Sequence record: MN850644.1
Source of the DNA: Escherichia phage ekra
Direction: 5' to 3' (one strand)
DNA length: 64,000 nucleotides
Shown: piece by piece, positions 20,325 through 22,135 of the stretch
How positions within the stretch are numbered: the first letter of the stretch is position 1
Layout of the letters: each line of letters starts with the position of its first letter
Program-made: the position numbers and the translations under genes
The notes under the pieces: model-generated
Seen by the model: only the letters and a program-made list of their open reading frames with translations
Told to the model about the DNA's origin: nothing
The model's database searches: none

Positions 20325-20650
20325 TCACTTAAGAGTCTTTGAAAAGGGTTTTTTAAGTGATGTGGGGCGAGGCTCGGTGAGGTGGGGTAAGGCATAGTGC
20401 GGTGCTGTTTGGTATGGGTAGTTAGTCTCAGCTACATTAAAATGAGACTTACCTTTTTAAAAGGTCTTTAAACAGGGTCTTTTAATAAGGTTGTGTGATG
20501 TGATGTATGGTGCTGTGGAGTTTGGTTAGGTCCGGTCAGGTATGGTATGGTGATGTGAGGTATGGGTGGATGGTAGTAGCCACGTTAAAAATCTACCAAG
20601 TTTCTAAAGAGTCTTCTGTTGAGGGTTCTTTACAAACAACTTAACAATCA
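20325..20650 (+). repeat. composite repeat cluster A: two full units plus one degenerate box (GGTCTTT double box + (GGTNN)n pentanucleotide tract + hairpin)
   Basis: Box AAGAGTCTTTGAAAAGGGTTTTTTAA at 20329, GT-rich tract with 5-nt phase 20355..20420, hairpin AGTCTCA-12nt-TGAGACT 20424..20449; second unit 20453..20598 (box TTTTTAAAAGGTCTTTAAACAGGGTCTTTTAA, tract, hairpin TGGTAG...CTACCA). Confidence 0.8.
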
Positions 20651-20673
20651 ACTAAAGTGTGGAGCTAAATGCT

Positions 20674-21261
20674 ATGAAACTGTTAAATATCAAAATCACT
20701 GGTACTCGTCCTTTCCTGAGCCATGCAGATACTCTGTCAGACCCATTAAACCCTCTGACAAAATATCACAAGTCTCTGTCCAGTAAACGTAAAAAGACTG
20801 ACGAAGACTATGCGCTCTTAGCAGAAAGTCAACTGGTAACTTCTTGCTACTACGATGACCAACTAGGTTTTGTTATGAACGGTGAGATGATTGAGGCTTG
20901 TATCAAGTCTGGTGCAAAACTCAATAAACTTGGTAAGGTAATTGACCGAGCCATTATGCTGACAGATGTAGTCTTCCCAATGACTATCAAGAACTGCCCA
21001 GCAAACCCACAAGAACTTGCTAAGAATCCAGACTTTATCTATGCTAAGTCTGTTAAGATTGGTACAGCACGAGTTATGAGCTACCGTCCAATCTTCCGTG
21101 ACTGGTCTGTAGAGTTCGGTTTGATGTTCGATGAAGAGCAAATTACCAAAGAGGAACTCTTGATGGTTCTGGAAAATGCTGGTAACCTTTGTGGTGTAGG
21201 TGATTGGCGTCCACGCTTTGGTCGTTTTTCTGTAGAAGTTATTTCAGAAGGTAACGTTTAA
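20674..21261 (+). CDS. hypothetical protein flanked by repeat clusters
   Basis: ORF 20659..21261 (track start is GTG); ATG 20674 with GGAG 9 nt upstream; no recognisable motif. Confidence 0.45.
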
Positions 21262-21263
21262 TT

Positions 21264-21704
21264 ATGAATACGAAAGCATTAGCAGCAAAGTTTAGTTACG
21301 GTGACACTGTATCACATTCTGAGATGGACACCTTCTTAGGTATTGTGAAGCCAACTTATCAAGGTGACATTGTTAAGTACGAAGATGAAATGAAGGCTTA
21401 TGCGCTTACACGTCTAAACCGACTTGAGAAGTTTATTGAGAAGCTTCTTAAAGAAGAGAAGATTTATCTGGTTGCTTCAATGGGTGTTGGTTATCGTGTG
21501 GTTGAACCTAAGCATCAAGCAACTATTGCAAAACGAAAAATGTCTGGTAAAATTGGTCGTGCTTTAAAGCAAGCCACTCAAGCGATTGAGAATGTGAACA
21601 CTATGGCACTTAGCCATCAAGAACGCTCACGACTAATTGAACAGCAAAACCATTTAGCTGCTATGAAAGCTAACATTAACAAGCAACGTAGAAAACCTTT
21701 CTAA
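21264..21704 (+). CDS. hypothetical protein flanked by repeat clusters
   Basis: 146-aa ORF, basic C-terminus (NKQRRKPF). Confidence 0.45.
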   Translation: MNTKALAAKFSYGDTVSHSEMDTFLGIVKPTYQGDIVKYEDEMKAYALTRLNRLEKFIEKLLKEEKIYLVASMGVGYRVVEPKHQATIAKRKMSGKIGRALKQATQAIENVNTMALSHQERSRLIEQQNHLAAMKANINKQRRKPF

Positions 21705-21715
21705 GTTAACTAGGT

Positions 21716-21738
21716 AGCCTCTTCGGAGGCTCCTTTTT
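21716..21738 (+). terminator. rho-independent terminator (AGCCTC-TTCG-GAGGCT + T-run)
   Basis: Perfect 6-bp stem, tetraloop, followed by CCTTTTTAAAA. Confidence 0.55.
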
Positions 21739-22135
21739 AAAAGGTCTTTAAGAGGGTCTTTTAACAAGGTGCTGCGAGGTGGGGTCGGGTCAGGTACGGT
21801 CTTGTAAGGTCAGGTTAGGTAAAGTGAGGTATGGGTAGTTAATCGGAGCTACATAAAAATTCGATTACATCACTTAAGAGTCTTTTAAAAGGGTTTTTAA
21901 GTGAAGTATGGTATGGCATGGCGCGGTGAGGTCGGGTGCGGTCAGGTCAGGTGAGGTTCGGTATGGGTAGTTAGTCTCAGCTACATTAAAATGAGACTTA
22001 CCTTTTTAAAAGGTCTTTAAGAGGGTCTTTTAATAAGGTATTGTATGGTGTAGTTTGGTTAGGTATGGTTGGGTGTGGTAAGGTAGGGTATGGAAGGATG
22101 GCAGTAGCCTTATAAAAAATCTGCCAAATAAGCTA
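21730..22135 (+). repeat. composite repeat cluster B: three units of the same GGTCTTT box + (GGTNN)n tract + hairpin
   Basis: Units at about 21732..21870, 21871..22002, 22003..22127; hairpins AATCGGA...TTCGATT (21841..21866), AGTCTCA...TGAGACT (21973..21998), TGGCAG...CTGCCA (22099..22126) show compensatory changes relative to cluster A. Confidence 0.8.

Follow-up and report, generated by a model that had tools for sequence, protein, structure and literature searches.

A repeat array of Escherichia phage ekra interpreted as a type II VIPR locus with predicted targets in E. coli satellites

What would a phage do with five structured repeat units, each carrying a long pentanucleotide tract, placed on either side of two small genes? 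The question is raised by a 64,000-nucleotide (nt) stretch of Escherichia phage ekra (MN850644.1), which is the window analyzed here and to which positions and strands refer unless another locus is named. Ekra is a Felix O1-like myovirus (Felixounavirus) and is 97% identical to Escherichia phage Andreotti over the locus region. The original prediction, made from the sequence alone, had described five units of one repeated composite element, all of which were found at the places given for them, and had known of no described phage element with this architecture. The latter statement is superseded by two preprints of April 2026 on VIPR (Viral Interference Programmable Repeat), a CRISPR-like RNA-guided DNA-silencing system (bioRxiv 10.64898/2026.04.26.720920 and its structural companion, bioRxiv 10.64898/2026.04.26.720927; no peer review yet). 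We conclude that the region 20265–22126 is almost certainly a complete type II VIPR locus of the SUSP1 clade in a Felixounavirus, in which two vrRNA genes precede the vipr–vap1 gene pair and three follow it, five in all. The element is already known, and ekra is unnamed in the text of the VIPR preprints; the additions made here are an independent check of the targeting rule, a target map for ekra and one undescribed accessory RNA element.

According to the preprints, a VIPR system consists of a minimal RAMP protein (Vipr), an accessory gene (vap) and vrRNAs of ~100 nt, each built of 9–16 YNNGG repeats (Y, pyrimidine; N, any nucleotide) and a conserved tail, which is a pseudoknot in the clade of the model phage SUSP1 (bioRxiv 10.64898/2026.04.26.720920 and 10.64898/2026.04.26.720927). 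In SUSP1, one Vipr protomer per 5-nt repeat forms a helical filament along the vrRNA, and cryo-electron microscopy (cryo-EM) displays each GGY flipped into protein pockets with the guanines in syn (bioRxiv 10.64898/2026.04.26.720927). The NN of each repeat is exposed for pairing; in the DNA target, read as (xNN)n, every third base is skipped, and binding of the Vipr–vrRNA complex to DNA represses transcription (VIPR preprints). Expression of the ~100-nt SUSP1 vrRNAs, their co-purification with Vipr and target repression were documented by small-RNA sequencing, pull-down, GFP and plaque assays; the targeting of DNA is reprogrammable, the skipped bases are biased to wobble positions in natural targets, and the guides of the SUSP1 clade share a target element, an E. 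coli satellite in which the genes for tape measure and baseplate are similar to those of the phage (bioRxiv 10.64898/2026.04.26.720920).

Proteins and repeat tracts of the locus

The two enclosed genes, which had been considered to lack a recognizable function, were identified as vipr and vap1. The vipr gene (20674–21261, + strand) encodes a Cas7/Csm3-like RAMP protein of 195 amino acids (aa) that polymerizes on GGY repeats. It is 97.9% identical to phiSUSP1 Vipr, i.e., four substitutions in 195 residues, and a phmmer search against the PDB matched it to entry 36pp, ‘SUSP1 Vipr protein’, with an E-value of 2e-128. All four GGY-contact residues listed in the cryo-EM preprint (H17, R138, D177 and W178) are retained in the ekra protein. 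Vipr is a minimal RAMP protein with an RRM core, a G-loop and a thumb in a Cas7-like fold, as in type II VIPR. The vap1 gene (21264–21704, + strand) starts 3 nt downstream of vipr and encodes the 146-aa VIPR accessory protein, 99.3% identical (1 of 146 residues different) to the product of the gene 3' of vipr in phiSUSP1. In SUSP1 this protein is a predicted DNA binder and enhances protection (bioRxiv 10.64898/2026.04.26.720920). By sequence, vap1 had no match in Pfam or the PDB, and comparison of both genes with Pfam, PHROGs and PADLOC returned unnamed PHROG families only. A single RAMP gene is present, with no other cas genes, CRISPR array or adaptation module around vipr.

The five tracts display GT in unbroken 5-nt phase, the few non-GT slots being GC. 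Lag-5 GT pairs per 75 nt reach 14 in the locus and at most 4 elsewhere in the 64 kb (mean 0.32, standard deviation 0.59); on the - strand the maximum is 4 across the 64 kb, so that the pattern is confined to the + strand. When lags of 2–12 were compared, lag 5 and its harmonic, lag 10, were the only ones to stand out. The period-5 signal of the locus is not due to chance, and the strict 5-nt phase proposed earlier is confirmed by the computed peak. The description as a GGT tract holds for its periodicity but not for its wording, since the conserved triplet is [G>T,A]-G-[T>C] and not strict GGT.

All tracts lie on the + strand and end in a constant AT dinucleotide before GGG. This final AT never matches targets and was therefore assigned to the constant tail. 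The U1 tract (20356–20415) comprises 12 GGY-NN repeats with the guide GA GG GA TC GA GG AA AT GC GC TT, and the U2 tract (20489–20563) comprises 15 repeats, with GT in 15/15, and the guide TG GA GA AT GC GG TT TA CC CA AT AT GA GA. Downstream of the gene pair, 13 repeats form the U3 tract (21768–21832; guide GC GA GG CG CA AC CT AA CA TA AA GA), 13 the U4 tract (21900–21964; guide GA AT AT AT GC GA CG GC CA CA GA TC) and 11 the U5 tract (22037–22091; guide AT AT GT TT TA AT TG GT AA AG). With 11–15 repeats in exact phase, the ekra tracts have the repeat structure of type II vrRNAs.

To describe the variability of the guides, 22 related Felixounavirus loci were parsed, yielding 94 units and 65 distinct guides, in agreement with the expectation that the N positions differ freely between copies. 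The entropy of the NN positions was 1.90–1.96 bits, near the maximum, whereas tails and hairpins across the same loci fall into a few conserved types. The parser imposed G at repeat position 2 and Y at position 3, and support for both comes from run length, which extends up to ~20 repeats with a median of 12 per unit. Guides U1, U2 and U5 are common to ekra and Andreotti, and guides U3 and U4 were not found in the 21 other related phage loci; ekra (21768–21964) and Andreotti (L001, 5272–5465) carry entirely different guides and repeat numbers at positions 3 and 4 of the array. Between these two phages, 97% identical in this region, the exchange of guide cassettes far outpaces the divergence of the flanking genome.

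Predicted targets in E. coli satellites

To search for the satellite, the ekra tape-measure and adjacent baseplate genes (35724–37931 and 34924–35724) were used as the query. The satellite was present in 480 of 5426 complete E. coli genomes, and in 490 with a second probe. It is ~11 kb long, carries a large serine recombinase of ~507 aa at one end and is integrated between yciI and tonB, in a DUF72 gene next to yecD, or near mdtG. Eleven E. coli satellite loci were then scanned with the five guides, each GGY being replaced by 0, 1, 2 or 3 wildcards and the terminal AT being excluded from the scores. Only the 1-nt skip yields outliers; skips of 0, 2 and 3 nt give 13–19 matching bases. With the 1-nt skip, the best match of U1 (21/22 guide bases) falls in the recombinase gene of the yciI/tonB-site satellite, those of U2 (24/28) and U3 (22/24) fall in the recombinase gene of the yecD-site satellite, and that of U5 (18/20) lies upstream of the first gene of the satellite operon. 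These sites are at 17532–17563 of L031 (U1), 11311–11351 and 11428–11462 of L032 (U2 and U3) and 10452–10480 of L031 (U5). When the order of the dinucleotides was permuted, with the terminal AT counted, none of 300 trials attained the observed score for any of U1–U3.

No target of U4 was found in the 11 satellite loci (best match 17/24), where three recombinase alleles give partial matches at the same homologous position. When 11 of the 12 U4 dinucleotides were used as an exact pattern against IMG/VR, a single match was returned, with 22/22 bases, on contig L042; the site, 3276–3307 of the contig, is inside the gene of a 547-aa large serine recombinase that adjoins a Dit-like baseplate gene. 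The three targeted recombinase types share only 28–35% mutual identity, and at all four recombinase sites (U1–U4) the NN fall on codon positions 1 and 2, the skipped base being the wobble position. For U5, the match overlaps the -10 hexamer of a promoter, TTGACA-17-TAGTAT, that is located ~50 nt before the first start codon of the operon, a placement that, judged from the promoter motif, would suit repression. Within ekra's own 64 kb, no self-target reaches 80%, the best self-match being at most 77%. The 1-nt skip, the wobble position of the skipped base and the lack of self-targets are those of natural type II VIPR targets. Obtained with independent code and data, these results confirm that the one-nucleotide-skip rule predicts targets for all five guides, in frame at the recombinase genes.

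We hypothesize that the ekra guides would act on these predicted satellite targets. The five guides would aim at a satellite integrated in E. coli, one with tape-measure and baseplate genes related to those of the phage: U1 would be directed against one allele of the large serine recombinase, U2 and U3 against a second and U4 against a third, while U5 would lie over the promoter of the main satellite operon, at its -10 region. Upon phage infection, the satellite would likely be unable to excise or to express its genes. Such a concentration of guides on three integrase alleles and the main promoter suggests that the phage blocks satellite excision and gene expression, and the guide set could, as follows from the targets, be read as a record of at least three satellite integrase lineages met by the phage.

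Two side observations were made on the satellites. The region targeted by U5 (locus L031, 10396–10461) contains two strong sigma-70-like promoters that diverge from each other, one on the + strand (TTGACA-17-TAGTAT) and one on the - strand (TTAACA-18-TATAAT), and by these motifs looks like the regulatory switch region of the satellite. Several satellites also have a period-5 GGY tract of their own (8–12 repeats) in an unannotated region, on the strand opposite to the main operon (- strand; L036 4094–4158, L037 4052–4116, L039 3457–3521, L040 4060–4104 and L041 3457–3521), which fits the remark in the VIPR preprint that some satellites encode vrRNAs themselves.

RNA structures, transcription signals and relatives of the locus

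The 3' tail of each unit, previously described as a hairpin with the conserved loop GCTACATTAAAA, does show the compensatory changes attributed to it; however, it is an H-type pseudoknot, in which CTAC of the supposed loop pairs with an upstream GTAG, with the variants GTGG/CCAC and AAGG/CCTT. In 19 distinct tails from the 22 loci, 12 pairs in two interleaved helices are paired in 90.4% of cells, both sides have changed in 9 of the 12 pairs, and the covariation score was reached by 0 of 500 shuffles. When the partners were slid by 1–3 columns as a control, pairing was only 25–42%. The tails, all on the + strand and all supported by covariation, are located at 20416–20450 (U1; S1 GTAG/CTAC, S2 AGTCTCA/TGAGACT and an A-rich loop 3), 20564–20598 (U2; S1 GTGG/CCAC, S2 TGGTAG/CTACCA), 21833–21867 (U3; S2 AATCGGA/TTCGATT), 21965–21999 (U4) and 22092–22126 (U5; S1 AAGG/CCTT, S2 TGGCAG/CTGCCA). 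A pseudoknot tail was reported for the SUSP1 clade and is visible in cryo-EM (bioRxiv 10.64898/2026.04.26.720920 and 10.64898/2026.04.26.720927).

A second structure precedes each tract. What had been recorded as a double GGTCTTT box is a real motif, yet its two half sites are the arms of one hairpin of 16–19 bp, and it occurs in six copies, not five. The hairpin is A/U-rich and is closed by several G.U pairs, which are available only to the + strand transcript; together with the covariation of the tail, this upholds the earlier suggestion of selection on RNA structure. Two sequence types were recognized, beginning with CATCACTTAAGAG and CCTTTTTAAAAGG. A motif scan located all six copies in the VIPR locus and none elsewhere in the 64 kb, and the hairpin of every unit is also present in SUSP1. 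The U1 hairpin (type A, 20323–20362, + strand) pairs CATCACTTAAGAGTCTTT with AGGGTTTTTTAAGTGATG in a 17–19-bp stem with G.U pairs. Folding placed the others, on the same strand, at 20452–20490 (U2, type B; CCTTTTTAAAAGGTCTTT...AGGGTCTTTTAATAAGG), 21732–21769 (U3, type B), 21868–21906 (U4, type A) and 22001–22038 (U5, type B). The hairpins adjoin the preceding pseudoknot, and the 3' arm overlaps the first repeat of its own tract. The sixth copy (20606–20631, + strand; AAAGAGTCTTC-TGTT-GAGGGTTCTTT), found by reading the sequence and by the motif scan, is followed by no tract; it has the U2 tail before it and the vipr ribosome-binding site after it.

The minimum free energy of whole units was not significantly better than that of shuffles in four of the five units (z from -0.7 to -1.6), U1 having a z of -2.95; with the tract unstructured, structure therefore resides only in the hairpin and the tail. 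The units recur every 132–137 nt, of which tract and tail occupy 90–110 nt and the hairpin the remaining ~35–40 nt, and the hairpin is therefore presumably outside the mature vrRNA. In the text of both VIPR preprints, neither processing by RNases nor maturation of vrRNAs is mentioned, and no hairpin 5' of the repeats is described. We tentatively propose that the hairpin could be a dedicated signal for vrRNA maturation or boundaries in Ounavirinae type II VIPR arrays, and that host RNase III or an enzyme of that kind would cut it. Placed before each tract and before vipr, it might release ~100-nt vrRNAs from longer transcripts, for which RNase III would be the obvious candidate enzyme. In other VIPR types, hammerhead ribozymes are located between the vrRNAs (bioRxiv 10.64898/2026.04.26.720920). 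If the proposal is true, the hairpin would be the functional counterpart of these ribozymes, and the separation of type II arrays into individual guides may be explained by a hairpin confined to the locus.

A sigma-70-type promoter upstream of U1 (20265–20292, + strand; TTGACA-16-TATACT, 11/12 consensus matches) probably starts a vrRNA1–vrRNA2–vipr–vap1 transcript, as far as motif and position can tell. After vap1, an intrinsic-terminator-like hairpin with a T run (21716–21738, + strand) was found, and the T run at the same time provides the 5' arm of the U3 hairpin. The immediate neighbors of vipr–vap1 are a ligase gene, small hypothetical genes and a gene for a helix-turn-helix regulator, and the wider setting includes genes for DNA polymerase, ligase, dihydrofolate reductase and thymidylate synthase.

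Relatives of vipr at 37–39% protein identity all have same-strand period-5 tracts flanking vipr and a downstream partner gene, and around Vipr homologues at 37–43% identity the tracts, of GGT or GGC with period 5, again run on the strand of the gene. The sources of these distant loci are phage contigs from metagenomes and the genomes of a Rhodococcus and of a member of the Xanthomonadaceae; a wider protein search returned more than 500 Vipr relatives, including prophage-like regions of Rhodococcus and of a Xanthomonadaceae genome. In Rhodococcus and Xanthomonadaceae the tracts are GGC-NN and not GGT-NN, the higher-GC relatives having 53–65% G+C, and the 5-nt phase is retained. The conserved feature is therefore a GG-pyrimidine every 5 nt together with the gene pair, across bacterial phyla. 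A search of Rfam gave no credible match for the ekra locus region (E up to 10) or for six distant loci (E up to 1).

The tails of some relatives are of another kind. In Rhodococcus globerulus GCA_037145555.1 (L028, 5117–5650), an array of five GGC-NN tracts was observed, each ending in a tRNA-like module with an acceptor-like stem (GUCCGG/CCGGAC) and a canonical T-arm (GGCGG-UUCGAUU-CCGCC), two of the five being called ‘tRNA-???’ by ARAGORN. A T-arm-like sequence, GGGUGCGAAUCCC, is also present in L024 (3134–3188), and Rfam returned no match for the Rhodococcus or L024 tRNA-like tails. VIPR tails differ between lineages, and may recruit tRNA-processing enzymes.

Within the databases, 259 phage records match the 3.5-kb region, of which only 117 encode Vipr at an identity of at least 90%; some matches retain a single unit, and many Felix O1-like phages seem to be without vipr or the entire locus while retaining the flanks. 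GenBank GU169904.1, ‘Staphylococcus phage SA1’ (147 kb), contains this E. coli-phage VIPR array at 81% identity, and two ‘Campylobacter’ records also match the region; all three are probably mixed or mislabelled deposits. In GenBank records the locus bears only the automatic labels ‘repeat_region’ or ‘DR_4’, and the earlier Felix O1 and wV8 literature is without an interpretation; the Felix O1 genome paper lists other direct repeats and gives the VIPR repeats no function.

Competing explanations and known systems

Several other roles could be imagined for such tracts, and the comparative data bear on each of them. A replication origin or primase-loading zone, as first proposed, would treat the tracts as T7-type primase sites (GGGTC, TGGTC, GTGTC) and the boxes as binding sites of an initiator; GTC-containing pentamers do occur in the tracts, and the locus does lie among replication genes (DNA polymerase, ligase, dihydrofolate reductase, thymidylate synthase). 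This reading is nevertheless highly improbable, because the distant relatives keep the 5-nt register with GGC-NN, from which the GTC core of a conserved primase site is gone, and because the tracts always accompany a Cas7-like RNA-binding protein rather than replication genes, in Rhodococcus and Xanthomonadaceae as well. Moreover, the variable positions match another mobile element in a sequence-specific manner, and the supposed boxes form the stem of a G.U-containing RNA hairpin. We consider a G-quadruplex element just as improbable. GG every 5 nt is formally compatible with two-tier quadruplexes, and such G2N3 repeats, in the RNA or in the displaced DNA strand, would on this reading regulate transcription or replication; however, A or T replaces the first G in 23% of repeats, a quadruplex needs neither the conserved pyrimidine after GG nor an exact phase over 55–75 nt, and in the cryo-EM structure of the 98%-identical SUSP1 complex the GGY sit in protein pockets with syn guanines.

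An RNA of the TRAP (trp RNA-binding attenuation protein) or CsrB kind, in which the tracts would bind Vipr as a sponge or as a translational attenuator of vipr and vap without any guiding, is very unlikely. TRAP does bind RNA through period-5 triplet repeats, and some distant loci have a tract that stops directly at the vipr or vap ribosome-binding site. A sponge, however, needs no information in the NN, which are near-maximally variable between phages and yet match satellite genes, always in one codon phase and far beyond what permuted controls attain; for SUSP1, the preprint reports reprogrammable DNA targeting, in which swapped NN change the silenced reporter. The layout of a promoter, tandem structured RNA repeats and a gene for a ~190-aa protein resembles ToxI–ToxN, and tandem pseudoknotted RNAs that neutralize an adjacent toxin would make the locus a type III toxin–antitoxin-like array. 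We regard this as having next to no probability: neither Pfam nor PADLOC gave a match to ToxN, AbiQ, CptN or another defense family, the protein has a Cas7-like RAMP fold, and the units measure 132–137 nt with hypervariable cores instead of being identical ~36-nt repeats. A nut/boxA-like antitermination site (GGTCTTTAA resembles boxA, GCTCTTTAA), Chi-like or RecA-preferred GT-rich DNA, an R-loop origin, a Shine-Dalgarno sponge and TRAP-like ring binding were also considered, and were dropped in view of the Cas7-like RAMP fold and the VIPR preprints.

Some points weigh against our interpretation as a guide-encoding VIPR locus. The making and the action of the five RNAs in ekra are argued by homology with SUSP1, whose published mechanism stands in preprints, peer-reviewed papers being still to come. 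The excess of U5 over the permuted null is modest, as 6 of 300 trials, with the terminal AT counted, reach the observed score. The best matches of U1, U2, U3 and U5 carry one to four mismatched guide bases in the satellite variants sampled, and with 11 E. coli satellite loci and one IMG/VR contig covered, better or different targets may exist. No good sigma-70 promoter was found before U3–U5, an array that the terminator-like hairpin separates from vap1 and that may be transcribed by read-through or from a phage-specific promoter. Finally, the role proposed for the 5' hairpin is an argument from position, conservation and size arithmetic.

The closest known system is the type II VIPR of SUSP1, with which the ekra locus shares the gene order, the tail pseudoknot family, the repeat grammar (9–16 YNNGG in the preprint, 11–15 in ekra) and the predicted target class, an E. 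coli satellite carrying tape-measure and baseplate genes similar to those of phages. It differs in having two upstream and three downstream vrRNAs, whereas SUSP1 (L014) has one upstream and three downstream, as in the preprint. Compared with the class 1 CRISPR-Cas filaments, in which Csm3, Cmr4 or Cas7 assemble on crRNA, VIPR has a register of 5 instead of 6 nt, needs a GGY in each segment and reads its target with a 1-nt skip, and the ekra locus is without a repeat–spacer array, other cas genes or an adaptation module. The similarity of Vipr to the Cas7 fold is real, but the ekra locus is not a CRISPR locus. Only two of every five bases in a VIPR guide RNA carry information, and it is this unusual system that was picked out from raw sequence, as a rediscovery and not a discovery.

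TRAP binds (G/U)AG-N2-3 repeats as a closed 11-mer ring; its spacers are without information, and its output is attenuation of the bound mRNA itself. In both TRAP and VIPR a protein oligomer reads a conserved triplet about every 5 nt on single-stranded RNA, although the fold of TRAP is unrelated to that of Vipr. A parallel to the predicted targets is found in phage ICP1, for which Seed et al. in 2013 reportedly described a CRISPR-Cas system that targets the PLE satellite of Vibrio cholerae; in both cases a lytic phage has an RNA-guided system directed at a chromosomal satellite parasite. The ICP1 system is a full type I-F CRISPR-Cas that degrades its target and acquires new spacers, whereas VIPR is a single protein with repeat-coded guides and reported repression of transcription, and no acquisition machinery is evident.

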